Source: Nitrosopumilus sp.
GTDB taxonomy: Archaea; Thermoproteota; Nitrososphaeria; Nitrososphaerales; Nitrosopumilaceae
NCBI GenBank assembly: GCA_965204345.1
Contig: OZ241981.1
Coordinates: forward strand, 64,001 to 128,000
Direction of reading: 5' to 3'
DNA: 64,000 bases
Below are positions 4,938 to 18,208 of this stretch, piece after piece. How positions within the stretch are numbered: position 1 is the stretch's first letter; every line of letters starts with the position of its first letter. A program made the position numbers and the translations under genes. The notes below the pieces were generated by a model. It was given only the letters and a program-made list of their open reading frames with translations. It did no database searches and was not told the DNA's origin.

Positions 4938-5867
4938 TTACTTGCTCCCAATTTGTACAAATGATCCTGCTGAAACCGTCAGGCCTGCACATTTTTCAGG
5001 CTGAATAATCCTTGCAAGAATCTCTATTCCTTCTACGGTTCTGATGCCAGGCTTGCTAAAAAATGAGTCTGCATCCACTGCAAAAATCTTGTTATTTTTC
5101 ACAGCTCTTAGTGTTCTCCATGCCTTGTTATCTCTTAAAATTACGTCATATTCTGAAATTGTCCGCTTTGTGTCAAAACCGCATGGCATCAAAACTATGA
5201 TATCTGGATCTGACCTGATAATCTCATCTGTCGCCAGTCTTCTTGAATGCTCCCCTGCTTTGCTAATCATGTTTATTCCTCCTGCAATTTCAATCATTTC
5301 TGGAACCCAATGCCCTGCAGTAAAAAATGGCTCAATCCATTCGATTGCCAATACCTTGGGTTTGTTATTGCTGATAATTTTTCCAATGTCTGCAACTCTT
5401 TTTTCAAGAGAATCTGCTATCTGTCTAGCTCTTTTGCTGCATTCTAATATCTTGCCCAGTATTGTTATTGATTCTATGATCTCCTTGATACTGTGGGGAT
5501 CCATGGAGTGCAGAATCGGCTTTGTCCCAAGGATCTTTACTGCCTTATTCACTTGACTTGTATACGCGGCACAAACCTCGCAGGTACCCTGGGATATTAT
5601 CATGTCCGGATTTGCATTTTTCAAATTTTCTTCATTTAAAACAAAAATGTCTTTGCCCTCGCTTTGCAGCTTGCAAGTTGCTGCATCTATTTCCTTGCTG
5701 GTTAGTTCCTTGGAATTAATCACCGTATCTATGACTCTTGGTTTTGAGCATGCATCCTGCGGATATCTGCATTCGTGTGTTACTCCCTTAAGCTTGTCCT
5801 GTCTCCCTAATTCGTATACTAGTTCGGTTCCGCTAGGCACAAATGAGACGATTCGACTTACTGTCAT
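4938..5867 (-). CDS. Cobalamin/Fe-siderophore-type substrate-binding protein (BtuF-like)
   Basis: RIVSFVPSGTE, GVTHEC, CEVCA, AGHWVPEMIEIAGG, DPDIIVLMPCGF. Confidence 0.85.
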   Translation of the reverse strand: MTVSRIVSFVPSGTELVYELGRQDKLKGVTHECRYPQDACSKPRVIDTVINSKELTSKEIDAATCKLQSEGKDIFVLNEENLKNANPDMIISQGTCEVCAAYTSQVNKAVKILGTKPILHSMDPHSIKEIIESITILGKILECSKRARQIADSLEKRVADIGKIISNNKPKVLAIEWIEPFFTAGHWVPEMIEIAGGINMISKAGEHSRRLATDEIIRSDPDIIVLMPCGFDTKRTISEYDVILRDNKAWRTLRAVKNNKIFAVDADSFFSKPGIRTVEGIEILARIIQPEKCAGLTVSAGSFVQIGSK

Positions 5868-5965
5868 GGTTTTGACTAGATGATATTTTACTTAAACGCC
5901 CTGTTTGCTGGCGATCAATTTTTGTCATTAGGCAAGTTAATAGGCATTTTTTAGGTACAAAAACC

Positions 5966-7123
5966 ATGATTTCAGACTCTGAAAATATTCGTAGAGCCAT
6001 CCTGTCTAGATGGCACGAATCTCTTTTAAGGCATGGCAATCTGTTCTCTTCTGATTTTGTGAGCGGTGCTAGTCCTCCGTCTGTATTTGTTGGATCATAC
6101 AACTACCCCAAAGTCCTCGTTGGTCCTATGGTGCCCCCAATTCATGGGGATACTAGTCTGTTAGATAGCCCTGAGCGATGGACAGGAAAGTCTTTAGAAG
6201 ACATTGTAAATTTTAGGCTCAATTTGGTCAGGGGCACACAAAAAATTCCAATAGGACAGACTGACGGGCGATACGTTGAAAATCTCCAAGAAGTTACAAT
6301 GTCTTCAAGGCCTATTGATTCTGATCTAGTTTTTCAGAGTTCTACTGCCCCTAGTGTTTCACTTGACGGTGAGAGTGCCCCTTTTGGTCCTATTGGCCAA
6401 ATAAAATCTGCAAAATTCTCTGCAAATGCTCCTGTAAAATCTATAGAAAAAACATACTATGACAAGGATCTAAAAGCTCAAGATGCTGTTTTAAATTTAT
6501 ATAATTCCGGAGTAGAAATTTCAAAAATCCAAAAATGCTTCAGTATTGGAATGCTCGGATGCAAAAGGAAGCTTGTTCCTACTAAATGGAGTATTACTGC
6601 AACTGATGATATTATTTGCAAATCGCTTACCGAGGACGTGTTAAACTACGGCCTGATTGACTCGCACAGGGTCTTTTCGTATGAGCATTTGGGGAATATC
6701 TTTTGCGTGGTATTGTTTCCACACCGATGGGTCTATGAAATGATTGAGGCCTGGTATTCTAACGGTGTCTTGGGTTTTGGCTCTGACTGTGAGGATGCCC
6801 GCGGAATTGATCATCCTCCCACTATTGCCGGTGCATATTTTGCTGCAAAACTAGGTGTTTTAGAATACCTTGTCAAAAATAAAGTTCAAGCAGGAGCTGT
6901 AATTTTACGAGAAATCCGTCCCGAGTATGCCATCCCTGTCGGTGTGTGGCAAGTGAGAGAGGGCGTCAGGGAGGCAATGAATAAAAAGCATCTCTTTGCC
7001 GATGATTTTGAGCACGCACTAACTTTGGCCTCAAATAAAACGAGCATCAGTAAATCTGAGTGGCTCATGCATGGAAATGTTGTCGAACTGACCAGACAGA
7101 AAGCTATTTCTGATTTTTTTTAA
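5966..7123 (+). CDS. nreA: Nre-family DNA repair protein
   Basis: SPPSVFVGSYNYPKV, LVPTKWSITATDD, GAYFAAKL, PVGVWQVRE, C-terminal PIP box QKAISDFF. Confidence 0.9.
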   Translation: MISDSENIRRAILSRWHESLLRHGNLFSSDFVSGASPPSVFVGSYNYPKVLVGPMVPPIHGDTSLLDSPERWTGKSLEDIVNFRLNLVRGTQKIPIGQTDGRYVENLQEVTMSSRPIDSDLVFQSSTAPSVSLDGESAPFGPIGQIKSAKFSANAPVKSIEKTYYDKDLKAQDAVLNLYNSGVEISKIQKCFSIGMLGCKRKLVPTKWSITATDDIICKSLTEDVLNYGLIDSHRVFSYEHLGNIFCVVLFPHRWVYEMIEAWYSNGVLGFGSDCEDARGIDHPPTIAGAYFAAKLGVLEYLVKNKVQAGAVILREIRPEYAIPVGVWQVREGVREAMNKKHLFADDFEHALTLASNKTSISKSEWLMHGNVVELTRQKAISDFF

Positions 7124-7193
7124 AATCTGCTGATTTAATTTTAAATATCATAATTTTGCATAAGTATTTTTTTGGGGGTTATTAGTAAAATAA

Positions 7194-7740
7194 TGAACTA
7201 TCTACCTTTCCTAACAATTCAAAAGATCATCAAACATTTCAGAAAAAGCTGCAGACAGAGGCAGTAAATACGCAGAAAAAAACTCTTAATCAATAATAAA
7301 GAACTTTGATAAACTCTGTAAGGAAAAATATGACAAACAGGTGGTGAGACAATTAAAAGCGATTCGTGATGAATATTTTACTAAAACTGGAAGAAGAAAT
7401 ATGACAAGCAGGAGATCAGACCAATAGCAGAATATCAAAAAATAGATCTAGGTATTGTTTACAAGTTACTCCAAGAGTGGATCAACTGGAACAGCAAGAA
7501 TATGCTTCTAAATGATATCCCAGTTTTTTCATGTATTAAAAAAATATCTCAGATATCACAACATAAAGATCACAAAAGAGGATATGGAAAATTCTCCGGA
7601 TTTTCCATACATGATCAAAGAGGAAAAACACCCACTGACAAAAGAGGAGCTGCAAGATATTGAGTCTGAGCAACAGGAAAAATTATCTCAAAATTATAGG
7701 ACAGTTATCAAGTGGATTAAGATTGATAGGACTTGACAAG
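7194..7740 (+). pseudogene. Decayed N-terminal part of a tyrosine recombinase/integrase
   Basis: Pieces across frames read KNFDKLCKEKYD...YKLLQEWINWN...QFFHVLKKYLRYHNIKITKEDMEN...EEKHPLTKEELQDI, resembling the core-binding domain and LTxEE linker of thaumarchaeal integrases. Stops and frameshifts are present and the catalytic domain is missing. Confidence 0.6.
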
Positions 7741-7836
7741 TACATTCTAATAAATATCAAAAAGTGAATTTTTCAGAATGAAAATATTATTACATGGTAT
7801 TTAGAAAAATTATCCATAAATTAGAGATTTCAATAT

Positions 7837-8097
7837 GTAAGAATATCTCCTAAAATAAGAAATATCATTACACGGTATGATTTAGAAAAGAGAATAAATA
7901 TTCAAAGATTAGCGTGAAAAATACCAAAATCTACGTATAAGCCTGAACAATTTCTATGTCTGATCTTTAGAATTTAGGATAGATTGATTGGATTATCTTT
8001 GCATCGGAGAAGGGTATATTATCGAGAAGAAAACCATCTCTGAATTAAATCAAAAATGTTTGAAGTTCAAAGATGGATAAAATATACACTTGTCTAA
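7837..8097 (+). pseudogene. Pseudogene of the TBP paralog (C-terminal repeat only)
   Basis: Manual translation VRISPKIRNIITRYDLEKRINIQRLA*KIPKSTYKPEQFLCLIFRI*D...IFAS..KG...KTISELNQ aligns with the C-terminal half of 14536..15075 (IKITPKVQNIVARFDLKQ...LPKSMYEPEQFPGLIYRIQD...LFASGKG...KTIAEVN). Two stops plus frameshifts. Confidence 0.8.
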
Positions 8098-8112
8098 TCT
8101 TTTATTAGAGTT

Positions 8113-9474
8113 TTGTTGGTGGAAATAATGGTGACACAGATAGAATTTGAGAAAGAAAATCTTCCAGAAGGATGGATTGTAACAGCAATTAGCAACATAA
8201 CAGAAACTGTACAAAAAATTAATCCTAAAGATACCCCCAATAAAATATTCCATTATTGTGACATAAATTCGATCGATAATAGTAGATTACAAATTACCAA
8301 TCCAAAACAAATTTTGGGTAAGAATGCACCATCTAGAGCAAGACAACTAATTAAGAAAAATGACATATTATTTTCCACTGTTCGAACATATTTGAAAAAT
8401 ATTGCGATGGTTCCAGAACATTTAAATGATAATTTGGCATCAACAGGATTTTGTGTTATACGAGCAGGAAAAATTAATGAAAAATTTATGTTTAATTATA
8501 TACAATCATCTCAGTTCATTGATCTAATAAACAGTGCACAAAGAGGAATAAGTTATCCAGCTGTAAGAAATAATGATGTACATAATAGCATTATTCCTCT
8601 CCCCCCACTCAACGAACAAAAACGCATCGTTACAAAAATCGAATCAATCTTCACACAGATTGATGCATGTAAAGAAGAATTAGATGTATTTGCATCGCAG
8701 ACCAAATCAGTTTCTTATAGTTTACAAACATTGAAGGGAAATATATTAAAACAAATGTTTGAAGAATTAAATAAAAAACACAGAGCAGATATGTTAGAGA
8801 AGGTGTGTATTGATATCCAATCGGGATTTGCTCAAGGGGAAAAAGATGTAAAAAATGGAATAATTCATCTTAGAATGAATAATATAGATACAAACTTCAC
8901 AATGAATTTTGAACTACTTCGGACTATCAATGCTACAAATAAACAAAAAGAAAAATATCTTTTACAAAAAAATGACATACTTTTTGTGAATACGAATAGT
9001 GTAGAATTAGTAGGCAAATCTGCTATTTTTACATTTGATAAAGACTGTCTTTATAGTAATCATTTAACACGTCTGCGCACTAATATTTCTATACTAGATC
9101 CAAAATTTCTCTTGTATTATTTTTATTATAAATGGATAAAACATGATTTTCGAAGTATATGTAATAAATGGATAAATCAAGTGGCAATTAATACTACAAA
9201 AATTAAACAACTACAAATTCCTCTTCCTCCCCTCAACGAACAAAAACGCATTGTTACAAAAATCGAATCAATCTTTGACAGGATTGATGTAAAACAAGAG
9301 GAAATGAAAAAGATTGAGATGCAGTTAAAATCAATTCCCGACAGCATTAATACATTGAAAGGCAGCATATTAAAAAAAGCATTTGAAGGTAAGTTGGTTC
9401 CACAGAATCCAAATGACGAACACGCATCTGTACTTCTTGAGAGGATAAAATCCCAAAAATCTAGGAAAATATAA
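8113..9474 (+). CDS. hsdS: Type I RM specificity subunit HsdS, copy 1 (TRD-A + TRD-B, complete C-terminus)
   Basis: LPEGW, two IPLPPLNEQKRIV conserved regions, C-terminal AFEGKLVPQNPNDEHASVLLERIK typical of the EcoAI/EcoEI (type IB) group. Probable start is ATG 8128. Confidence 0.95.
   Translation: MLVEIMVTQIEFEKENLPEGWIVTAISNITETVQKINPKDTPNKIFHYCDINSIDNSRLQITNPKQILGKNAPSRARQLIKKNDILFSTVRTYLKNIAMVPEHLNDNLASTGFCVIRAGKINEKFMFNYIQSSQFIDLINSAQRGISYPAVRNNDVHNSIIPLPPLNEQKRIVTKIESIFTQIDACKEELDVFASQTKSVSYSLQTLKGNILKQMFEELNKKHRADMLEKVCIDIQSGFAQGEKDVKNGIIHLRMNNIDTNFTMNFELLRTINATNKQKEKYLLQKNDILFVNTNSVELVGKSAIFTFDKDCLYSNHLTRLRTNISILDPKFLLYYFYYKWIKHDFRSICNKWINQVAINTTKIKQLQIPLPPLNEQKRIVTKIESIFDRIDVKQEEMKKIEMQLKSIPDSINTLKGSILKKAFEGKLVPQNPNDEHASVLLERIKSQKSRKI
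8146..8178 (+). repeat. hsdS repeat R1 (33 bp); inverted copies at 15618-15650 and 16305-16337
   Basis: TTTGAGAAAGAAAATCTTCCAGAAGGATGGATT; 31/33 identical to the reverse complement of 15618-15650. Confidence 0.9.
8593..8666 (+). repeat. hsdS inverted repeat R2, left copy (74 bp)
   Basis: 73/74 identical to the reverse complement of 15835-15908 (single C/T difference at 8610). Confidence 0.95.
9233..9293 (+). repeat. hsdS inverted repeat R3, left copy (61 bp)
   Basis: 55/61 identical to the reverse complement of 15160-15220. Confidence 0.9.
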
Positions 9475-9499
9475 ACACATGACATAAATTTACAAATAG

Positions 9500-10189
9500 T
9501 TGTTTATTCAAATTTCCAAGATAAAGAAAAAATATAATATCTTTACTAATAACATGCAAATGATTATGAGATCTAATTTACAAAATGATACTGGCCTAAA
9601 AATTCACAATAAAATAATTTTACAATTTTTTAAAGATTGTAAAGATAAAAAATTGTTATCCAATACAATAAAACCACAACAGAATAATACTATATGTACT
9701 CGTTGGGATATATCTAAGTTAACCGATCAAGCAATTCAAAAAATACGTAAACATAGGATTGATTTAAAAAACAATGAAAAAACACAATTTCTAAGTGATA
9801 AAGAACATGATGCCTTACAGTTTTCTCGCTGTGTGTCTTTTTTGAGAGACACTACCGAAGATTTGAAAATTTCATTACAGTTAATTATTGATCCATCACA
9901 AGTAAAATCATGTACTGAGCTTGGAAAATACCTTAACGAAATTTATAATAAACTAGGTTATAATGACGACAAGAAATCCAAAATGAATCGTGCCTTTCAA
10001 AAAGATCTCAGAAATGCATTAAGTCATAACAATTATTCGTATAAATGTGATAAAAACCATGTAAAGAGCATAACATGGCAAGATCATAATCAAAAACACA
10101 CATGGAATCAAGTGGAATTGTCCAAATCCATCTCAAAGATAATTTGCATAAATGGACTAATTGGCAAAATAATTAATGGGAAATTCTGA
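9500..10189 (+). CDS. Hypothetical protein with RxxxxH (HEPN-like) motif
   Basis: AT-rich 229-aa ORF directly downstream of hsdS copy 1, with DLRNALSHNNY in a helical context. The true start may be ATG 9554 or 9560. Confidence 0.55.
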   Translation: MFIQISKIKKKYNIFTNNMQMIMRSNLQNDTGLKIHNKIILQFFKDCKDKKLLSNTIKPQQNNTICTRWDISKLTDQAIQKIRKHRIDLKNNEKTQFLSDKEHDALQFSRCVSFLRDTTEDLKISLQLIIDPSQVKSCTELGKYLNEIYNKLGYNDDKKSKMNRAFQKDLRNALSHNNYSYKCDKNHVKSITWQDHNQKHTWNQVELSKSISKIICINGLIGKIINGKF

Positions 10190-10197
10190 TACCGTGC

Positions 10198-11697
10198 TTA
10201 TTTTGGGATTTCCTTGTTGATAATGTCTTTTATATCTTCAAATGACTTGATCATGCCCTTTCTTAGATCAATAAACTGATCAATTAATTTGTCTGGTGGC
10301 AGAACAATTGTTTCAATTACATCTGTTGGATTGTTGGAGTCAAGATTGAAATCCTGAATGTCTTTAACATTAATTTTCCATGCATTTTCATTTGATGTCT
10401 TCTTTTTGAACCATTTTTCAATCTCTGCAAAGTCGTCATATGCGATTGGGTTTGACTTTGTATATTTGGGATTCTTTGCACGAGTTACTCCACGCAATCG
10501 TTCGGCTACCTTCATTTGATAATACCAAATTTCTTTGGTTGGTCCTGTCTTGTCAAAAAACAGTATGTTTGTTGCAATTGATGTGTAAGGCTCAAAAACA
10601 GTTTTGGGCAGCCTAATTATCGTATGCAAGTTAAATTCTTCAAGAAGTTTTTTCTTGATTTTAGAGGCAACGCCTCCTGCAAACATTGGACCATCTGGAA
10701 GAATAATTCCACACCGTCCTCCTTCTTTTAGAGAATACATGATGTATAACAAGAATGAAAGAGCAGTATCTGATGTCTGCATTCCTACAGGTAGATTGGA
10801 TGAAATTCCTTCCTCCTCTTCCCCCCCAAATGGTGGATTCGTTATGATAAGATCATACTGGTCATTTTGAGAAATTTCTCTCAGAGGATTAACAAGTGTG
10901 TTTGCTCTGATAATGTTTGGTTTGTCTACCTCATGAAGAAGCATATTCATCATTCCTAAAAGATAAGGCATGGATTTTTTCTCGATCCCAAATAATGTGT
11001 TTGTAGTTAGTTTCTTCAAATCTCCTTTTGTTTTTTGTTCATGTCTTAGAAACTCCAAAGATTCTACCAAAAATCCACCTGTACCACATGCAGGATCTAA
11101 TATCTTTTCAGATTTTTTTAGACTAGGGTTGATTTGATTTACAATAAACCGAATTACAGGTCTTGGTGTGTAAAATTCTCCACTATTTCCTGCGGCATCT
11201 CTCATCTCAATTAACATATCTTCATAGAGTTTTGCCATGGTGTGAATGTCATCAGTATTGATAAAATTTACCTTATCTATCAGATTAATAATCTGTCTGA
11301 GGAGGTATCCACTGAGTATTCTATTGTTTAATTCTTTAAAGATCGTTGCAATGACATCTCTTTGTTCAAAACCTTTATCACCTGTCAGTTTTGAGAGTTT
11401 TGGAAATAATTTATTATTTACAAATGAGATTAGATCAGGACCTGTTAAAACCTTGACAGTACGTCCTTTCTTATCTTTTTCTGCTGCCCAATCCTGCCAT
11501 CGTAATCCCTTTGGTATTGCCTCCACATATTTTCTATTTAGAGCAGCCCTCTCTCTTTCAAAATCATCAAAACTCTTTAGGAATAAAATCCATGCAATTT
11601 GAGGAATTCTATCAACATCAGTATTAAGACCTGCATCTTTTCTCATTAGATCTCTTGCAGATTTTATTATAGAACGAAGTGAATGTGCATCCATCAT
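10198..11697 (-). CDS. hsdM: Type I RM methyltransferase subunit HsdM (N6-adenine)
   Basis: GEFYTPR, DPACGTGGF (motif I), NPPF (motif IV), N-terminal RDLMRKDAG. Confidence 0.97.
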   Translation of the reverse strand: MMDAHSLRSIIKSARDLMRKDAGLNTDVDRIPQIAWILFLKSFDDFERERAALNRKYVEAIPKGLRWQDWAAEKDKKGRTVKVLTGPDLISFVNNKLFPKLSKLTGDKGFEQRDVIATIFKELNNRILSGYLLRQIINLIDKVNFINTDDIHTMAKLYEDMLIEMRDAAGNSGEFYTPRPVIRFIVNQINPSLKKSEKILDPACGTGGFLVESLEFLRHEQKTKGDLKKLTTNTLFGIEKKSMPYLLGMMNMLLHEVDKPNIIRANTLVNPLREISQNDQYDLIITNPPFGGEEEEGISSNLPVGMQTSDTALSFLLYIMYSLKEGGRCGIILPDGPMFAGGVASKIKKKLLEEFNLHTIIRLPKTVFEPYTSIATNILFFDKTGPTKEIWYYQMKVAERLRGVTRAKNPKYTKSNPIAYDDFAEIEKWFKKKTSNENAWKINVKDIQDFNLDSNNPTDVIETIVLPPDKLIDQFIDLRKGMIKSFEDIKDIINKEIPK

Positions 11698-11728
11698 TAC
11701 TCATAATCGTATCGACATTAAATATGAT

Positions 11729-14095
11729 TCAGTTGTCTCTATACAATTCCTTTGTTAATTGTATTATTGCACCATCATATTCATCACCATCTTTGAATCT
11801 GTGATTGATGATTTCAGTAGGGCCTCCAAACTGTTTGAATTTTGGCAATTTCAAAACTCCTCTTTCCTCCAACTCTTGATACCCCTCCTCTGCATAATGA
11901 TCCAATATCACCTCTAGAACTTCTCGTGCTTTGTTCGGATATTTCTCCAAAAATGCCTTTTTATGTACAGAATTGATCCTCTCTAATCGAGTTTTTGCAT
12001 CTGCATTAAATGCAAAATGTAAGAGCATATCAAATGAATCAATCTTAGCCATCTGAGTGATTTCTTTAAGATGTGAAAAACTAACGCCTCTCTCTTCTAG
12101 TTGCTTTACAAAATGCTGTCTTTTTTCAGGATCTGTCCATATCTTGTATAGTTTTGTTTGTTCATCATTTACTAGACGGCGAACAGTCTCTCCAGTATAA
12201 TCTTGATAAGAAATAAGCCTATTCTGATTAATTGATTGATCAAAAATTAAAACCGATTCACCACGAATTTCTACTTTTTTTCCATTTATGTGATATGTTT
12301 TAATTGTTTGTGATTCTTGTTCTTCTTCTGCTTTATCTTCTAGTGCCTCTTTTACTGCATTTCTTCTTTTCTCTTCTGCACGTTCTAAGATTTTTTTTTC
12401 TTTTTCTTTAGTAATTATTTCTTGTTCTTCTTCAGTTTCTGCAATTGCAGGACCATCCCATTCTACATCCTCAAACAATCTACTAGTTTTTCTATAATCT
12501 ATAATTGAAAACCACATCTTATCTTTTGGTTCATAGACACGGGTACCTCTACCAATAATTTGTTTGAATTCAGTCATGGAATTAATGCTCTTATCTAATG
12601 CAATTATCTTGCATGTTGGAACATCTACGCCTGTTGACATTAATCTAGATGTAACTGCAACAATTGGAAAATCTTTGTTTGGTTCCTGGAATTGATCCAA
12701 GTATTCTCGTCCTATTTCACCTTCAGCAGAAACTATTCTGACACAATAGTCATGTCTTTCTCCAGAATAATTTCGAATTAGTTTAGTCATTGCTTGTGCA
12801 TGTTCTGAGTTTTGACAAAATAAAATCGTCTTGTTATATTTTTGATTATTTTTCTCCAAAAAATCTACAAGGTGTTTTGCTACGGTCTTTCGTCTCTCAT
12901 CAACAATTAAAATTCTGTCAAAATCTTTATAGCTGTATGTTTTGTCATCAAGTATCTTTCCATCTAAATCCGTTTCCCCTGGTTTTGGAATATATCCCGT
13001 CAGATCAATTTCAAGATTAACCCTGTGAATCATGTATGGTGCTAAAAAGCCATCTTCAATTCCTTGTTTTAGACTGTATGTGTATATAGGAATACCAAAA
13101 TAATCATACGTATCTTTATTTTCGTCCTTTCGTTTAGGAGTTGCAGTCATGCCTATGTGAACAGCATCTTTGAAATAATCCAATATCTTTCTCCAGCTCC
13201 CATCCTCATTGGAGCTTCCTCTGTGACATTCATCAATTATTATGTAATCAAAGAAATCTTTTGAATATTGCTTGTACAGCTCACAATCCTCTTTATCTAC
13301 ATCAAGTGCTTGATATAGTGCAAAATACATACTATATGCAGTCTGTGCAACTTTTTGGATCTTGTGTCTTGCTTCACCAAAACCTGCAAATGCATTATTT
13401 TTTGCTTGATCTAACAAAACGGTTCGATCTGCTAAAAATAAAATTTTTGGATGTGGGGTATCTTTTTTCCAGAGTTTTTGTGCAATTTGATAAGATATGA
13501 ATGTCTTGCCAGTTCCAGTCGCAAGATTTAAGAGTACGCGCTTCTTTCCTGCAAGAATTGCTGTTAATGTGGAATGGATTGCAATTTCTTGATAGTACCG
13601 AGGTTCCATGGGAGATCCTCCTGGATCTTTTGAACTTCGATCCAACGACTCTAATATAACATTCATTTGTTTTTTATTAAAATTTATACCTTCTTGGAAT
13701 CTCTCTAGTAATTCTTGAGGTGTTGGAAATTTATCTATTGTTTGTTGTTGTTTTTTGGAAAAGTCATATTCTTCAATTTTCTGTCCATTTGTTGCAAAAG
13801 CAAATTTTAACTCCATTTTTTCAGCATATTTTATTGCCTGACTCATTCCTTCATCATGTGGTTTGTCCCATGCTTTAGCTTCTATTACTGCAATTTTGTA
13901 ATCATCACCCAACTTGAGAATGTAATCAGCTATGATTGGTTGTGCCCTTTTTCCAGTACGGCCATCAGGAGTAATTCTGCCTTCATTAATTTTATATTCC
14001 CTAATGATTTTATCTAATTCCCAACCAGATTCTGCTAGCTTGGGATCAATATGTCTCATACAAGTGGTTGATTCGGACATCTTTTCTTCAGTCAA
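11729..14095 (-). CDS. hsdR: Type I RM restriction subunit HsdR (EcoAI/EcoEI-like)
   Basis: ADY...VIEAK nuclease motif, ATGTGKT, IIIDECHRG, GMTATP, TGVDVP, QIIGRGTR and an EcoEI_R_C-like C-terminus. Confidence 0.97.
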   Translation of the reverse strand: MTEEKMSESTTCMRHIDPKLAESGWELDKIIREYKINEGRITPDGRTGKRAQPIIADYILKLGDDYKIAVIEAKAWDKPHDEGMSQAIKYAEKMELKFAFATNGQKIEEYDFSKKQQQTIDKFPTPQELLERFQEGINFNKKQMNVILESLDRSSKDPGGSPMEPRYYQEIAIHSTLTAILAGKKRVLLNLATGTGKTFISYQIAQKLWKKDTPHPKILFLADRTVLLDQAKNNAFAGFGEARHKIQKVAQTAYSMYFALYQALDVDKEDCELYKQYSKDFFDYIIIDECHRGSSNEDGSWRKILDYFKDAVHIGMTATPKRKDENKDTYDYFGIPIYTYSLKQGIEDGFLAPYMIHRVNLEIDLTGYIPKPGETDLDGKILDDKTYSYKDFDRILIVDERRKTVAKHLVDFLEKNNQKYNKTILFCQNSEHAQAMTKLIRNYSGERHDYCVRIVSAEGEIGREYLDQFQEPNKDFPIVAVTSRLMSTGVDVPTCKIIALDKSINSMTEFKQIIGRGTRVYEPKDKMWFSIIDYRKTSRLFEDVEWDGPAIAETEEEQEIITKEKEKKILERAEEKRRNAVKEALEDKAEEEQESQTIKTYHINGKKVEIRGESVLIFDQSINQNRLISYQDYTGETVRRLVNDEQTKLYKIWTDPEKRQHFVKQLEERGVSFSHLKEITQMAKIDSFDMLLHFAFNADAKTRLERINSVHKKAFLEKYPNKAREVLEVILDHYAEEGYQELEERGVLKLPKFKQFGGPTEIINHRFKDGDEYDGAIIQLTKELYRDN

Positions 14096-14535
14096 TTTTC
14101 AACATAAAATTTTCAACATATTTCTAGATAAATGTTCTTTTTGAAAAATCAAATATTTTAGAATAAAATCAAGATTTGAATCTGCGAAATATTTTTGAGA
14201 ACTGATCTATTATACAGCTAACCATAGTGTGTTTATATCAGATCAAGAATAGGTGTGACTCTGAAAATATCTGGAATTTCTTGTATGGTGTAACAAGCAT
14301 TAGCTTGAACTCCTCTGTACAGACTGATTTTCACCTCCAATCATAACATTAACAAGTATTTACTTGTTGGACAGTAACGCAAAATATGCAAAATGAGAGA
14401 TGTTCATTAGATCTACAATTGTGGTACTTCGCACTATTGGATCTTTGGTTTTTATTTAGATTAGGACATATCTAGACAACTGATTACAAAATAGATTCAA
14501 TCTTAACAATTATTAGAAAAAATAAGAAAATTTCA

Positions 14536-15075
14536 CTAGATACATCTTACCTTGATATCAAATAATGCAGAATTTACTTCTGCAATGGTTTTTGCCCCTG
14601 CAATAACTCCTTTTCCTGATGCAAACAAAAGTGCTACACAGCTATCTTGAATTCTATATATCAAACCGGGAAATTGTTCTGGTTCATACATACTTTTTGG
14701 TAATATTCTTACAAGTTTTTCTATTGGCAAATTTTGTTTTAAATCGAATCGCGCTACAATATTTTGCACTTTGGGAGTAATTTTAATGAGTTTTGCAAGA
14801 TTATAATTATCCAGTATTTTTATTGCTTTTTTTAATTCTTTTTTAGATTGTGCAGGATTCTTTGTTCCAACTGAAATAAGTTTTCCATTTCCAAATACAG
14901 TAACTCGTCCAACCATCAAATCATCTTTTACATACCTACACCTGTATAAAGCAATATTTGAGCTGAGAAAGGGATATTTGTTAAAAGAAGCAATATCTAT
15001 TTTCTGTTTAAGATCTGCTGTAGTTACAGTGTTTTGAATTTTAATTCCTGCTACAAGCTTTGACTCTTTTTGCAT
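14536..15075 (-). CDS. Divergent TATA-box-binding protein paralog
   Basis: Two-repeat TBP architecture: IQNTVTTADL...VFGNGKLISVGTK and VQNIVARFDL...YEPEQFPGLIYRI...LLFASGKGVIAGAK. Repeat 1 lacks the YxPExFPG motif. Confidence 0.9.
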   Translation of the reverse strand: MQKESKLVAGIKIQNTVTTADLKQKIDIASFNKYPFLSSNIALYRCRYVKDDLMVGRVTVFGNGKLISVGTKNPAQSKKELKKAIKILDNYNLAKLIKITPKVQNIVARFDLKQNLPIEKLVRILPKSMYEPEQFPGLIYRIQDSCVALLFASGKGVIAGAKTIAEVNSALFDIKVRCI

Positions 15076-15086
15076 TAAAATTCATG

Positions 15087-16346
15087 TTACCCTATCGCAT
15101 TAAAAATGAATGTATTATTCACATATGTGATTTTTTGTTTGATTAAATATAATATCTGCTTTACATCAATCTTGTCAAAGATTGATTCAATTTTGGATAC
15201 GATGCGTTTTTGTTCGTTGAAAGGCGATAGTAAGACAGGAATAGTTTTCATTGCTGTCTGATTAAGTTTCAATCGTGTTGTCCCAGTTACATATCCATGA
15301 TAATTCACCTGATTCAAATAGTGGCAAAGAAATTTGTTGATCAATAATCCAGATATTCCTTTAAGAACATGAGCATGATTATTAACCCAACTTTTTCCAT
15401 TAACAATGTAGGCTTTGTTTTTGAAAGTTTCAAAAAATGGTGCACCGTCTTCTCCCAACAAAACCAATTCTTCATCAAAAATATAATCATCAATCAAGCC
15501 AACTTGACCAGTAGCACCATAATATGGAATATTTCCAGTACGATTTTTCCGTTCACTAGAATTTACTGGTATTCTTTTTCTGTCCCAAATTTCTACAATA
15601 TCTTCCAAATTGATCTTAATCCAACCTTCTGGAAGATTCTCTTTCTCAAAAATCAACTCTTTCTCAGAACTCTTATGCAATCTCCTCAAAAGCATCTCTG
15701 CTGGCTCATCAGCTGGATCCTGTGAAACCAGCTTGCCCTCAAAGGCCTGCTTGAGCACGCTACTTCTTAGCATCCCCAGGCTGCCAGAAGATGACTTTAT
15801 TTGAGATGCAAGTGCCTCCAGCTTGTTTTGTGCCGCATCAATCTGTGTGAAGATTGATTCGATTTTTGTAACGATGCGTTTTTGTTCGTTAAGTGGGGGG
15901 AGAGGAATTGAATATATTGCCAGCTTTTCATATTTTATTCGAGGGTGTTGAACTCCTGTCATATTTCTATTAGCAAAACGTACAACCTGACTGGTAGATA
16001 AAAATAACATAATGTATTTGCTAACCAGATTGTCATTTTGTTGGAAAACCAATATGTCTGTGGAACACACTCCGTTAAAATCTGGAATTGCTACTTTGTT
16101 TAGATATGGACGTAATTTTCCATAAAGAATATCTCCCTTACTAAAGACATTTTTTGTGCTCTTTGTATCTTTTGAATTGGCCTTTCCAATAATTTTTCTT
16201 GAATTACTTTCTATGTGTTCTAATCCCACAAAAGGTTGATTTTTCTCATTCTTTGGATCAAATTTTCTTTTTGATTGATTCAGAACATTCAGTAAATCTG
16301 TTCTAATCCACCCTTCTGGAAGATGCTCTTTCTCAAAAATCAACAT
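15087..16346 (-). CDS. hsdS: Type I RM specificity subunit HsdS, copy 2 (TRD-C + TRD-D, C-terminal conserved region missing)
   Basis: LPEGW twice, IPLPPLNEQKRIV, central AFEGKLVSQDPADEPA. After IDVKQ the sequence becomes unrelated (ILYLIKQKITYVNNTFIFNAIG*). Confidence 0.9.
   Translation of the reverse strand: MLIFEKEHLPEGWIRTDLLNVLNQSKRKFDPKNEKNQPFVGLEHIESNSRKIIGKANSKDTKSTKNVFSKGDILYGKLRPYLNKVAIPDFNGVCSTDILVFQQNDNLVSKYIMLFLSTSQVVRFANRNMTGVQHPRIKYEKLAIYSIPLPPLNEQKRIVTKIESIFTQIDAAQNKLEALASQIKSSSGSLGMLRSSVLKQAFEGKLVSQDPADEPAEMLLRRLHKSSEKELIFEKENLPEGWIKINLEDIVEIWDRKRIPVNSSERKNRTGNIPYYGATGQVGLIDDYIFDEELVLLGEDGAPFFETFKNKAYIVNGKSWVNNHAHVLKGISGLLINKFLCHYLNQVNYHGYVTGTTRLKLNQTAMKTIPVLLSPFNEQKRIVSKIESIFDKIDVKQILYLIKQKITYVNNTFIFNAIG
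15160..15220 (-). repeat. hsdS inverted repeat R3, right copy
   Basis: Reverse complement matches 9233-9293 at 55/61; similarity ends where hsdS copy 2 loses homology. Confidence 0.9.
15618..15657 (-). repeat. hsdS repeat R1, internal copy (40-bp direct repeat with 16305-16344)
   Basis: 38/40 identical to 16305-16344; encodes LIFEKENLPEGWI. Confidence 0.9.
15835..15908 (-). repeat. hsdS inverted repeat R2, right copy
   Basis: 73/74 match to 8593-8666. Confidence 0.95.
16305..16344 (-). repeat. hsdS repeat R1, 5' copy
   Basis: Encodes LIFEKEHLPEGWI at the start of hsdS copy 2. Confidence 0.9.
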
Positions 16347-16559
16347 ATCAATTCTTTGTTTCTTTAATTTAAATTAGTCAAGTAACAGTTAAAGTGAAAA
16401 ATAGAATTTTATAAATCATAACAAATGAATCTCCTGCAATTGTTGCAAAGCTTTGAAATTATTGTACTATACTCCAAGGAGATTGTCATTGTGACATAAA
16501 CGTACTTTGTCTTTTCTTCAGATATTATAGTTAATGGTTTTATCTAGTTTATTAGCCAT

Positions 16560-17486
16560 TTAGATCTCTATTTTATACATGACTTTTTTGAATTCCCTAA
16601 AGAGATCTTCTAGGGTAGGCGTCAGATATACATGATCAAGACCATTTTTGTGACCCATTAGCTTTTCTGCAATGTTATAGTTTACTGAATTGTCCAGTTT
16701 TAAGACAGTATTGTATCGCTTTCTAAAACCATGATCTGCTTGGACGTCAAAACGATTTTTTGATTTTATTCTTTTCAGGTTACTTTTCTGAATTATTCTA
16801 TAAATTGCAGAACGAACGCCGTTCCAACCTAATTGTTTTGGAAGGAATTTGGTTGTTGCAAATATGGGAGTATCTTTGTAAAATATTTCTCCTTGATTTT
16901 TACGATATTCATGATAAGCTTTCAATGCCTTGGTTGCTTGTGGTGTAAGAAATGCCCAATACTCCTCAACATGTCCCGCATAAAGCAATATGCCAGTGCA
17001 ACCATATGACATCTTCATCATGTGTTTTATGGATAAATCGTGATCAAAAACTCCCACCCTTGCTCCTGTTGAACTAAAAAAGTACACCAAAGCTTTGTTC
17101 CTAAGGCTTGTTGTGTTGGATAATAATTTCTTGATTTCTTTTGTCGTATATGCCCTCAAGCTTTGCGTTTTTTGCTTTTGTGGGAACATTTTGTTTATGA
17201 TGTTCCAGTTAAGATTAATCTCATTCATTATACAGAAATGCTTTATGCCCTGAAACTTTGATGGGATAGAATTGGGGTTTGTAGTACGCTTTAGCTCGAT
17301 TAAATAATTCTCAAGATTATACTGCAAGTCTGTATTTGGAATACTTGTTAGTTGATTTTGGGATGTAATGTTTGCAAAATTTAAAAAAGAGTTAAGATGT
17401 GATGTATAATTCTTTTTTGTGTATTTTGATTTTATCGACTCTTCAAATAATAATGAACATCGATGTTTAGTTATTAAATTACTCAT
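16560..17486 (-). CDS. Tyrosine recombinase/integrase (Xer-like), intact
   Basis: Catalytic residues present: STGARVG (R), HGFRKR (HxxR), LMGH (H) and HVY (Y). Confidence 0.93.
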   Translation of the reverse strand: MSNLITKHRCSLLFEESIKSKYTKKNYTSHLNSFLNFANITSQNQLTSIPNTDLQYNLENYLIELKRTTNPNSIPSKFQGIKHFCIMNEINLNWNIINKMFPQKQKTQSLRAYTTKEIKKLLSNTTSLRNKALVYFFSSTGARVGVFDHDLSIKHMMKMSYGCTGILLYAGHVEEYWAFLTPQATKALKAYHEYRKNQGEIFYKDTPIFATTKFLPKQLGWNGVRSAIYRIIQKSNLKRIKSKNRFDVQADHGFRKRYNTVLKLDNSVNYNIAEKLMGHKNGLDHVYLTPTLEDLFREFKKVMYKIEI

Positions 17487-18208
17487 GTATTATTTTATTG
17501 TAAAATATTTATTTTTGTACATATGTTTATGAAATTAGAGCATCTTAATTTTTAGGATCATAATACTTTATCAAGATTGTTTTATATTCCCAGCATAAAA
17601 TCACAAACAGATTATTCTCTGATGATTTGGCATCTTGTAATATTTCCAAAATTGTTCCCATCTTTAAGATATGATTGCCTGCAGCTCATAATTAGTCATA
17701 CTGATAAAAAATATCGTTAGATTTACGTATGGAATTAAGGTCCAGAATGCCAAGTATCAATCTTTGCAGAAGTTAATATAACCTGGTGTAAAATATTGCC
17801 CTACACCTAAAATTATTACTGTAAAAACCAAAGAAAACCCAGAATAGTCTGCATTGGATTCTATTAATGAACTAACTGATGATTTGGACAAAACTTGGTG
17901 TTTCTTAGTTTAACTAAAATCAAATCCTGATTATAAAGACATTAATTTTTTTCCATATCATATGCATATGCCAAAGGGCATCAAAGGTAACTATCTTGCG
18001 CAAATTTGACACTTGCAGATGAATTTGATTACAGTTCATCAAGAAATGCCAATTTTGAATCCATGAACAATTACGTAACGTAATCATCATCTTCTGGGGC
18101 ATGTGTGCGTGCGTTTCTACTCTATCTTTTTTTTCATCATTGGAATTATCTGCTGATCTGCCCTAATCAGAGAGCATAAATCCTAGATTTAAATAAAAAA
18201 ATGAAACG

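Follow-up and report, generated by a model that had tools for sequence, protein, structure and literature searches.

Organisation of the locus

The window analysed here is a 64,000-nt stretch of DNA from Nitrosopumilus sp. (GCA_965204345.1, contig OZ241981.1, positions 64,001-128,000, forward strand). [quoted passage not shown] With about 30-35% GC vs about 40% outside, the locus forms a low-GC island. Its features are as follows, in window coordinates:

8113..9474, plus strand: hsdS1, full-length (453 aa ORF), with TRD-A, central helix, TRD-B, distal helix and tail
8146..8178, plus strand: R1 repeat at the hsdS1 N-terminus (FEKENLPEGWI), part of inverted repeats I5 and I6
8643..8664, plus strand: R2 core in hsdS1, ATCAATCT-TCACAC-AGATTGAT, inside the inverted repeat arm 8593-8715
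9267..9288, plus strand: R3 core in hsdS1, ATCAATCT-TTGACA-GGATTGAT, inside the inverted repeat arm 9233-9296
9297..9474, plus strand: sole complete hsdS C-terminal tail of the locus (remaining distal helix, AFEGKLV motif and tail; 61 aa after ..ID)
9500..10189, plus strand: ORF of 229 aa behind the full tail, taken from the ORF listing
10198..11697, minus strand: hsdM (Pfam N6_Mtase 213.6 bits, HsdM_N 37.3 bits)
11729..14095, minus strand: hsdR, EcoAI/FtnUII family (Type IB) (NCBIfam NF046051; Pfam ResIII and EcoEI_R_C)
14536..15075, minus strand: TBP paralog, within the putatively invertible segment between the truncated hsdS2 and hsdR
15087..16346, minus strand: hsdS2, truncated copy (419 aa ORF; Pfam Methylase_S 114.9 bits; AF2 pLDDT 89)
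15087..15156, minus strand: odd tail of hsdS2, 22 unrelated codons and a stop, A/T-rich, directly upstream of the TBP gene
15165..15186, minus strand: R3 core in hsdS2, ATCAATCT-TTGACA-AGATTGAT, inside the inverted repeat arm 15157-15220
15618..15650, minus strand: internal R1 copy of hsdS2, a direct repeat (D4) of 16304-16344
15837..15858, minus strand: R2 core in hsdS2, inside the inverted repeat arm 15786-15908
16298..16337, minus strand: R1 repeat at the hsdS2 N-terminus, part of inverted repeat I5
16560..17486, minus strand: int1, putative tyrosine recombinase and candidate invertase (conserved catalytic residues; profile matches below cut-off)

The hsdS1 product was recognised by Pfam Methylase_S at 82.4 bits (cut-off 22) and matched the PDB entries 3okg and 5ybb (E 4e-52). 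Read from its start, hsdS2 consists of R1, TRD-C, a complete conserved region with a tail-like linker, a second R1, TRD-D, R3 and the odd tail. HsdR was assigned to the EcoAI family because its NF046051 score of 889.4 bits exceeds the cut-off of 550. The S genes do match PRK09737, but below its cut-off. According to the available text of one review, Type IB S subunits have the domain order D2-S1-D1-S2 (PMC3874165); this order is absent from hsdS1, which reads TRD-helix-TRD-helix with a long helix and tail at the C-terminus. The Type IB label fits hsdR and not the system as a whole.

The truncated end of hsdS2

Both HsdS proteins share the stretch ...KIESIFD(R/K)IDVKQ, as seen in the ORF listing and the alignment. 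From there hsdS1 goes on with EEMKKIEMQLKSIPDSINTLKGSILKKAFEGKLVPQNPNDE..., while hsdS2 goes on with ILYLIKQKITYVNNTFIFNAIG, 22 unrelated residues that are followed by a stop. At the DNA level the likeness between the two genes breaks off after ...GATTGATGTAAA(A/G)CA. The hsdS2 stop codon ends at 15087 and the ATG of the TBP paralog is at 15075, which leaves a gap of 11 bp. The ORFs and the alignment thus agree with the original prediction that hsdS2 loses its C-terminus at the end of R3, and the ORF listing together with a comparison of the tails confirmed that there is one complete hsdS C-terminus per locus.

The original prediction had named an assembly chimera near 15160 as one of two findings that would overturn it. 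Some contigs of the assembly do represent alternative haplotypes, and in several sequencing runs the hsdS repeats are places where contigs break. We compared the runs X1, X2, X5 and X7 as assembled contigs. Contigs of X5 and X7 cross 14693-15659 unchanged, and C3, a contig of the same assembly that represents a second haplotype, keeps the same junction, with TBP, odd tail and R3 at 92.5% identity over 695 nt. Furthermore, the same architecture is found in nine other loci, several of them from single-contig genomes. We therefore regard the chance of a chimeric junction as negligible.

Inverted repeats and a palindromic core

The R1 repeat of hsdS1 pairs with 16298-16337 (I5) and 15618-15650 (I6) at 88-94% complementarity. 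The R2 repeats of hsdS1 and hsdS2 share 56 nt of exact identity. The R3 inverted repeat (9233-9296 and 15157-15220) is 64 nt long and 89% complementary, and its longest exact run is 19 nt. Each hsdS conserved region contains a core of 22 bp in which 8-bp inverted arms, ATCAATCT and AGATTGAT, surround a 6-bp spacer. R1 was also considered as a palindromic site and was rejected, as inspection by eye gave no convincing palindrome.

The 25-nt core pattern GAATCAATCTNNNNNNRGATTGATG occurs four times in the window, confined to the four hsdS conserved regions, and was found 0 times in each of 100 dinucleotide-preserving shuffles. With at most one mismatch allowed, its only occurrences in the 2.12-Mb genome are the eight hsdS conserved regions of contigs C1 and C3. 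The core is present in 10 of 401 genomes of the family, all from one genus; a reversed-pattern control gave no matches. A palindromic 8-6-8 core with spacers that are matched between partners and distinct between R2 and R3 has the look of tyrosine recombinase sites.

Conservation in related loci

Convergent hsdS pairs were compared in 10 Nitrosopumilus loci (the window, C3, G177, L023, G385, G375, G353, G274, G371 and G406). In every locus one hsdS has 56-67 aa after ..ID and its partner stops after 18-47 unrelated aa. Full and truncated copies stop resembling each other 4-11 nt beyond the right arm in all eight loci compared for this boundary, a count that leaves out G385 and G371. The R2 partners have identical spacers in 10/10 loci and so do the R3 partners, and the R2 spacer differs from the R3 spacer in all ten; over these loci R2 has four spacer sequences and R3 has five. 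Within the R3 spacers, one change is a synonymous GAC to GAT and is present in both partners. The compared genomes are kin, so the ten loci are not independent. An asymmetry of one full and one truncated copy in 10/10 loci fits a built-in feature better than an accident, and it upholds the shufflon-like asymmetry that had been claimed for the window.

Among the best 120 homologues of hsdS2 residues 225-419, seven (the query included) end no more than 32 aa past the core, and these seven have 5 unrelated tails. A search of the genome contigs with HsdR gave only two loci, one of which was G177. A family-wide DNA search with TBP, tail and R3 mainly matched the conserved TBP core of ordinary TBP genes, and its odd-tail part matched no genome but G000.

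These comparisons bear on whether hsdS2 works as encoded, with its short tail helix pairing with the central helix, two S subunits being made at once and no role in switching. Its frame is intact and the gene heads the TBP-hsdR-hsdM string. The AF2 model gives HsdS2 residues 376-418 as two helices (pLDDT 70-77), the odd tail being a helix that continues the distal one, but the alignment biases this result; because full-length tails are aligned onto those columns, the model is uninformative on the odd tail. Truncated Type IC S subunits are described as functioning as homodimers (PMC3874165; PMC7394358 for NgoAV), although PMC3874165 mentions none of them for enzymes other than Type IC. At the protein level there is no conservation of the tail: between the window and C3 its 22 codons have 7 nt differences, counted from the alignment, of which 2 are synonymous and 5 non-synonymous, and the other loci have unrelated tails at the same point. 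The AFEGKL motif, which is in every full hsdS copy, is missing from the odd tail. Moreover, two truncated copies carry further defects, the open frame of the C3 copy lacking a start within its first 75 codons and the G177 copy being split in two; for these two copies decay fits as well as a reservoir. Taken together, a working hsdS2 appears improbable, and the truncated HsdS2 probably does not work as an S subunit and instead provides a reservoir of TRDs.

Simulated inversions and a proposed switch

Inversions at R2 and R3 were simulated and gave four in-frame full-length HsdS proteins: A+B (453 aa), C+D (455 aa), C+B (439 aa) and A+D (469 aa). Inversion at R3 creates the 455-aa full-length ORF derived from hsdS2 and moves the full tail and the ORF downstream of it to the hsdS2 copy, just as had been foreseen from the window. 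The hsdS1 head gains the odd tail in return, and TBP-hsdR-hsdM then follow.

The anatomy of the locus, its conservation across loci and the in-frame products of inversion are directly demonstrated by these comparisons. We propose, with a probability of roughly 0.72, that the truncation of hsdS2 marks the outer edge of a recombination site, that this site belongs to an invertible Type I locus, and that the tail is passed on by inversion at R3. Two facing hsdS heads, each with its own upstream region, R1 repeat and TRDs, have a central segment of about 5.9 kb between them. One end of this segment bears the only complete hsdS tail, and the other end is non-hsdS sequence, here the upstream region of the TBP paralog-hsdR-hsdM string. 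Inversion at R3 would flip the central segment, so that the tail goes to the other head; inversion at R2 would additionally swap the second TRD. The head without the tail would end in a short read-through peptide. Because the spacer differs between R2 (central) and R3 (distal), each of the two sites would pair only with its own kind. With both inversions at work there would be four variants of full-length HsdS, and hence as many target specificities. The second dimerisation helix is described in the available text of Loenen et al. 2014 (PMC3874165) as zipping with the first and setting the spacing of the TRDs.

The candidate recombinase

The int1 product scored 25.2 bits with Pfam Phage_integrase (PF00589), below the cut-off of 27.1, and its G371 orthologue scored 30.5, above it. 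The NCBIfam XerA_Arch score was 53.8 bits, far under 220, and a phmmer search with int1 against PDB sequences gave no match. An alignment of 9 sequences has the catalytic R, H-x-x-R and Y residues (R143, H252, R255 and Y287) without exception. All ten hsdS-pair loci have an int1 orthologue inside or next to them, and in G375, G274 and G406 it lies between the two hsdS genes. Orthologues in 7 of the loci besides the window are 63-70% identical to int1. In a separate set of seven additional loci, three have int1-like genes (63-78% identity) but no hsdS match within the 19 kb covered. Int1 is the candidate catalyst of inversion; it could also be an island integrase.

Natural rearrangements

In run X2, from an independent sponge metagenome study, one contig joins 9280 to 15172 on opposite strands. 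The joint is covered to a depth of 21.5 (local depth about 22-27), is flanked on either side by no less than 255 nt, and has 16 nt common to both sites. The crossover falls within 9265-9280, GAATCAATCTTTGACA, which is the left arm and spacer of the R3 core, and the recombinant has TRD-B attached to the side of the odd tail and TBP. Since the R3 copies share at most 19 exact nt and neighbouring contig pieces overlap by 30 nt, k-mer collapse is an unlikely source of this joint. Inversion at the R3 core has occurred in nature. The original prediction had also pointed to the reciprocal junction, TRD-D to the 9294-9474 tail; the run contigs gave only a hint of it, a loose end of 17 nt. Inversion may be frequent within a population.

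The second haplotype gives a further view of the central segment. Both C3 flanks, that of Nre and that of int1, follow the window collinearly as far as R1, but the odd tail, TBP and hsdR of C3 are on the Nre side, which puts the central segment in the opposite polarity to that of the window. The hsdR and hsdM genes of C3 differ from those of the window (no blastn match between them), so that more than a flip of one and the same DNA separates the two. X1 and X2 have lost 687 bp between the direct R1 repeats of hsdS2 (joint 15638->16326, 18 nt shared), the joint having depths of 25.3 and 21. Contigs of X5, one of the likely source runs, span both R3 sites in the reference arrangement and gave no minor inverted form, contigs being prone to drop rare variants.

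These rearrangements could instead stem from rare general homologous recombination or gene conversion among mobile R-M islands, in which case int1 would be the integrase of the island and the truncated copy would be what cassette exchange left behind. Consistent with this, the locus is a low-GC island that varies between co-existing haplotypes, C3 and the window differ in their hsdR/hsdM cargo, int1 is at the island border in the window, and some int1-like genes have no hsdS match nearby. The 56 nt of exact identity at R2, the deletion between R1 repeats in X1 and X2 and the uniform X5 contigs point the same way. However, the X2 crossover took place in a shared stretch of 16 nt within a repeat whose longest exact identity is merely 19 nt, and the palindromic 8-6-8 core with matched yet R2/R3-distinct spacers in 10/10 loci resembles the sites of tyrosine recombinases. 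The boundary also stays equally sharp despite unrelated downstream sequences, and the position of int1 between two hsdS genes in three loci is that seen in bacterial invertons. We therefore consider general recombination unlikely, if somewhat less so than a working hsdS2, and favour site-specific inversion at the R3 core.

Several other contig features were examined as candidates and set aside. Contig breaks at R3 in X1 and X7 were rejected as signs of mixed orientations; the X7 break arises because the C3-type truncated copy shares the 30-mer 9265-9294. The X5/X7 joints 9216<->16307, 14535<->15693, 8178->9219, 15220->15617 and 15770->15161 were rejected as inversions of the window haplotype, since all five result from the C3 haplotype being mapped in pieces at 90% likeness. 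Run X1 also contains a joint 8593<->15616 with a depth of 8.3 and a side of 40.

The TBP paralog and the ORF behind the full tail

Two PF00352 stretches were matched in the TBP paralog (Pfam TBP, 108.2 bits; cut-off 22.9), and every NCBIfam TBP equivalog scored below its cut-off, which fits a divergent paralog. C3 has a 95% identical copy, and the other TBP copies of the genome are 36-50% identical. In a metagenome scan with the paralog, 4 of the 80 loci listed had at least 50% identity and the rest were ordinary TBPs at 34-39%. The repeated link between the TBP paralog clade and Type I systems suggests a new way for mobile archaeal defence islands to control their own transcription.

The ORF at 9500-10189 had been called HEPN-like. 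It gave no Pfam, NCBIfam or PADLOC match, and HEPN was not among its Pfam matches up to E 10. An Atlas lead to pEK499_p136 HEPN (score 0.92, with recognition below the usual level) and an R-x4-H motif (RNALSH) were the only signs in that direction. As there is no family match we do not call this ORF HEPN, and that part of the original prediction was not sustained.

Discussion

In many bacteria, inversion switches in hsdS change both the defence against phage and the methylation of the whole genome. Ammonia-oxidising archaea rank with the most abundant microorganisms of the sea, and little is known of their viruses; an ability to switch restriction specificity would affect how virus and host interact and how methylomes vary from strain to strain. 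With a core that is short and palindromic and spacers that co-vary, the pairing of recombinase and site can be tested directly. We tentatively raise the possibility of a Nitrosopumilus family of 'single-tail' Type I R-M switches that has a dedicated recombinase, a spacer-registered 22-bp core in the HsdS helix codons, a flipping tail and its own TBP controller. If this were true, it would be programmed specificity switching in an archaeon, and the island-borne TBP paralog, encoded between the recombination site and hsdR, would control transcription of the system to which it belongs, much as C proteins do in bacterial Type II systems.

Archaeal hsdS inversion switches have hardly been examined, although the supplements of Atack 2020 and Chanin 2023 may list cases. 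The scan of Milman et al. 2023 covered bacteria only and named archaea as future work (PMC9881135). Chanin et al. 2023 called archaeal chromosomal invertons 'minimally investigated' and used 42 archaeal long-read datasets, from Euryarchaeota and Crenarchaeota only (PMC10028968). The word 'inversion' is absent from the main text of two archaeal R-M surveys (PMC11033074; PMC10609329).

We read the locus as an hsdS inverton of a known bacterial kind, in a new form, in an archaeon. Like the bacterial hsdS invertons covered by Huang et al. 2020 (S. pneumoniae SpnIII/cod, E. faecalis and T. denticola; PMC7672463), it has several hsdS genes in inverted orientation with inverted repeats inside them, and a tyrosine recombinase, here a putative one, is encoded within the locus or next to it. 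In those invertons a single S subunit is intact at any one time and the secondary copies form a reservoir, as is probably the case here too. The same source describes a fixed expressed hsdS after hsdR-hsdM, with silent copies that are partial and promoterless (PMC7672463). In Nitrosopumilus, by contrast, each head has an upstream region to itself, and the 3' tail of hsdS is on the mobile piece. This piece also has hsdM and/or hsdR in the window and in most other loci, and the TBP gene in two loci. The host is archaeal, and its site, a short palindromic core, has spacers specific to each register.

The nearest match in layout is found in the hsd loci of Mycoplasma pulmonis with their HvsR recombinase. 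In work attributed to Dybvig et al. 1998 and Sitaraman et al. 2002, hsdM and hsdR reportedly lie between two opposed hsdS genes, within which inversion at short sites is reported to make chimeric S genes. We know of no single-tail asymmetry or TBP gene at these loci. The M. pulmonis recombinase, according to PMC7672463, has its gene elsewhere in the genome and acts on the vsa genes as well, and the host is bacterial.

C-terminally shortened HsdS proteins that arise from a switch or rearrangement are likewise described for NgoAV, EcoDXXI deltaC and EcoR124I delta50, which in the available accounts have one TRD and one helix and act as homodimers on palindromic sites (PMC3874165, PMC7394358). 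Unlike those truncated S subunits, HsdS2 keeps both TRDs and only the second helix is missing. Loci of clade-2 invertases share with the present one a repeat position that makes one arrangement encode a truncated HsdS; inversion there is described as giving truncated HsdS and ON/OFF switching (PMC7672463). Every arrangement of the Nitrosopumilus locus, unlike those of the clade-2 loci, has one full and one truncated copy, and inversion would thus be a switch of specificity rather than an off-switch.

A single complete C-terminus at the hsdS locus

Comparative data, together with one recombinant from nature, give good support to the original prediction that this locus is an hsdS shufflon. The genes lie in and beside a low-GC island (bases 7000-18000, ~30-35% GC vs ~40% outside) of an archaeal assembly of 2.12 Mb and 99.7% completeness.

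Features of the locus (window positions)
5966-7123, + strand: archaeal Nre gene, left flank of the island
8113-9474, + strand: hsdS1
9500-10189, + strand: 229-aa ORF behind the full tail, no family match
10198-11697, - strand: hsdM
11729-14095, - strand: hsdR, EcoAI family (NF046051, 889 bits, cut-off 550)
14536-15075, - strand: TBP paralog
15087-16346, - strand: hsdS2
16560-17486, - strand: tyrosine recombinase int1

The hsdS genes, with TRD-A and TRD-B in hsdS1 and TRD-C and TRD-D in hsdS2, carry N-terminal (R1), central (R2) and distal (R3) repeats. R3 is an inverted repeat (9233-9296 and 15157-15220), 89% complementary with a longest exact run of 19 nt. Both HsdS proteins contain KIESIFD(R/K)IDVKQ. 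After ..ID, hsdS1 encodes 61 further residues that run through the distal helix and the AFEGKLV motif into the tail. In hsdS2 the common motif is followed by 22 unrelated residues (the odd tail) and a stop, 11 bp ahead of the TBP start codon. ORFs and alignment thus confirmed that hsdS2 loses its C-terminus at the end of R3. The gene resembles a tandem pair of half-genes, the first comprising R1, TRD-C and a complete conserved region that includes an AFEGKLV motif and a tail-like linker, the second R1, TRD-D, R3 and the odd tail.

All sequencing runs were examined as Logan contigs. Contigs of runs X5 and X7 crossed the junction unchanged (14693-15659), and the small contig C3 of the same assembly has the same junction, with TBP, odd tail and R3 92.5% identical to the window over 695 nt. 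An assembly chimera at ~15160 was thereby ruled out. In the C3 odd tail, ILYLIKQKITSVNKTFVFNAVR, 7 nt of the 22 codons differ from the window; counted from the alignment, 5 of these changes are non-synonymous and 2 synonymous, so at the sequence level there is no sign of selection on this peptide. A TATA-like run, TATTATATTTAA (minus strand, 15143-15154), begins directly past the R3 boundary and lies 68-79 nt ahead of the start codon of the TBP gene; it could be the promoter of the TBP-hsdR-hsdM string.

In all 10 paired loci counted (window, C3, G177, L023, G385, G375, G353, G274, G371 and G406, which are kin and not independent), one R3 leads into a full tail of 56-67 aa and the other into 18-47 unrelated residues that end at a stop. 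The truncated copy ceases to resemble the full one 4-11 nt beyond the right arm of the core in the 8 correctly paired loci (G385 and G371 not counted). Outside this count stand G311 and G372 (a single core match each), G322 (one full-length hsdS beside int1, L115) and G291 (one truncated hsdS with TBP and hsdR, the partner being absent within the 19 kb fetched, L113). In a database search with HsdS2 residues 225-419, 7 of the 120 best homologues, query included, end no more than 32 aa after the core, with five unrelated tails. At L023, a 309-aa ORF (8956-9885) lies within the odd-tail region that separates the truncated hsdS from hsdR; compared with G177 the odd tail resumes beyond it, and the ORF looks like an inserted mobile element.

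A palindromic core with paired spacers

A 22-bp core of two 8-bp arms and a 6-nt spacer, ATCAATCT-N6-AGATTGAT, is present in every hsdS conserved region. It occurs 4 times in the window vs 0 in each of 100 shuffles, and at up to 1 mismatch the whole genome has it only in the 8 conserved regions of the main contig and C3. Of 401 family genomes, 10 have a strand-specific 31-nt version; the source assembly is one of them, and the other 9 are among the 98 further members of its genus. A reversed-pattern control gave 0 matches in the 401. The unpublished genomes G077, G092 and G093 belong to those that lack a core match, and no conclusion here draws on them. The usual site order is R2(+), R3(+), R3(-), R2(-), across 3.4-8.8 kb.

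Spacers of the core across loci
R2: TCACAC, TCTCAC, TCGCAC, TCTCCC
R3: TTGACA, TTGATA, TTGCCG, TTGGCA, TTGGTA

In 10 of 10 loci (again kin, not independent) the two R2 partners have identical spacers, as do the two R3 partners, and within every locus the R2 spacer differs from that of R3. One R3 change is a synonymous GAC to GAT, present in both partners. For strand exchange, tyrosine recombinases (Cre, Flp and XerCD among them) need identical spacers. The spacer pattern fits sites that would recombine in register only; such co-variation would also arise by concerted evolution through gene conversion.

Rearrangements in natural populations

In X2, a sponge metagenome from a study other than that of the likely source, a contig links 9280 with 15172 in opposite strand orientation at a depth of 21.5 (local ~22-27), with at least 255 nt per side. 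The junction is in register (9281 pairs with 15172), and the 16 nt shared, 9265-9280, are GAATCAATCTTTGACA, the left arm plus spacer. This inverted contig connects TRD-B to the odd tail and TBP. Graph collapse is unlikely here because the R3 copies share at most 19 exact nt and neighbouring contig pieces overlap by 30 nt. The reciprocal junction, predicted to join TRD-D to the 9294-9474 tail, appeared in no contig, but a 17-nt loose end at 9259 hints at it. In X1 and X2, hsdS2 also has 687 bp deleted between its direct R1 repeats (15638-16326, 18 nt shared, depths 25.3 and 21); this deletion removes the TRD-C unit and leaves a single-TRD hsdS head.

The small contigs C2-C9 are alternative haplotypes of variable regions of the main contig (85-99.8% identity), so the assembly represents a mixed population. 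C3 (10,621 bp) is that of the present site: its Nre end matches window 5613-7353 at 99.5% identity. Both its flanks are collinear with the window, yet the segment between them has the opposite polarity, with odd tail, TBP and hsdR on the Nre side and full tail and hsdM on the int1 side. Its hsdR and hsdM differ from those of the window, and C3 is therefore not the same DNA flipped. Judged by joint depths (12-38 vs 86-106), its share of the X5 and X7 depth is between about one sixth and one third. Both C3 hsdS copies (L009 818-1575 and 6958-7716) share the second TRD and linker, with identical protein across the stretch, and 60/60 nt left of the R3 core are identical. Gene conversion or recent exchange could explain this identity; an inversion at this stretch would alter the first TRD only.

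Predicted products and activity of HsdS2

Simulated exchange at homologous positions gave a full-length ORF in every state, including the R3 inversion for which one was predicted. The remaining head always received the odd tail, and the hsdM strand switched with each single inversion.

Full-length HsdS in each simulated state
Reference state: A+B, 453 aa
R3 inverted: C+D, 455 aa
R2 inverted: C+B, 439 aa
R2 and R3 both inverted: A+D, 469 aa

Observations speak both for and against activity of the truncated HsdS2 as encoded. Missing from it are the AFEGKL motif and the remainder of the distal helix, both present in all full copies, and PMC3874165 describes the HsdS helices zipping together and so fixing TRD spacing. 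Tails at the truncation point are unrelated between lineages, and two truncated copies have extra defects (in C3, an open frame whose first 75 codons include no start codon; in G177, a split gene). These points argue for an inactive protein. For activity speak the intact frame and the precedent of truncated Type IC S subunits, which function as homodimers. The AF2 model (mean pLDDT 89, pTM 0.66) also places residues 376-418 in a helix at pLDDT 70-77, a result biased by full-length tails aligned on these columns.

The int1 recombinase

Orthologues of int1 (63-70% identity) were found in 7 further aligned loci; G406 also has one, and C3 begins inside one. R143, H252, R255 and Y287 are invariant in the alignment, even in a second integrase at 20% identity. 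Against a dedicated role for int1 in the locus stand its Pfam score of 25.2 bits, below the cut-off of 27.1, the wide spread of int1-like genes (39 of 101 genus genomes, E <= 1e-40) and the absence of an hsdS match in 3 of 7 further int1-like loci fetched (L110, L111 and L112).

TBP paralogs and other neighbouring genes

TBP paralogs of one clade, sharing 45-95% identity with the window's copy, adjoin Type I R-M genes in 7 loci (window 14536-15075 (-), L009 6337-6888, L020 4657-5214, L105 3396-3935, L113 12027-12551, L022 8045-8587 and L026 5697-6239). Besides the window and C3, these loci come from G385, G291, G146 (which is of another genus), a metagenome contig and a third locus in the source genome itself. 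The other TBP copies of the genome are 36-50% identical to the window's paralog, which may be an island-borne transcription controller. A further relative (L025, 70% identity) lies beside genes without assignment. The third locus, L020 (G000:C1:228205-239555), contains two opposed pairs of half-size hsdS genes, four in all, together with the TBP paralog and, between hsdR and hsdM, a 448-aa ORF suspected to be a recombinase; the alternative haplotype C6 has 3.7 kb in place of this whole 11.3-kb island.

Close upstream of hsdS1 lie a TBP gene remnant (7828-8001 (+), 41% identical, 2 stops) and an ORF remnant (7512-7736 (+)) sharing KKYLRYHNIKITKED with a second integrase that is intact in L023 (5889-6848). 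Both look like traces of earlier island arrangements. The gene behind the full tail, predicted to be HEPN-like, had zero family matches in Pfam, NCBIfam and PADLOC; its protein Atlas lead is the pEK499_p136 HEPN family (0.92), and RNALSH is present in its sequence. In G353 an HEPN_Apea gene adjoins the truncated hsdS.

Comparison with known inversion systems

The word 'inversion' is absent from the main text of two archaeal R-M surveys, and none of the papers listed in the literature searches is about an hsdS inversion system of Nitrosopumilus or another archaeon. Milman et al. 2023 scanned bacteria only; Chanin et al. 2023 call archaeal invertons 'minimally investigated' and cite Atack et al. 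for Type I systems. Bacterial hsdS invertons are well documented (PMC7672463 and PMC7394358).

In G375, G274 and G406 int1 lies between the two hsdS genes, as the recombinase gene likewise does in many bacterial invertons. The locus is a single-tail hsdS inversion system in an archaeon, marked by a defined palindromic core and of a kind already known from bacteria as hsdS invertons.
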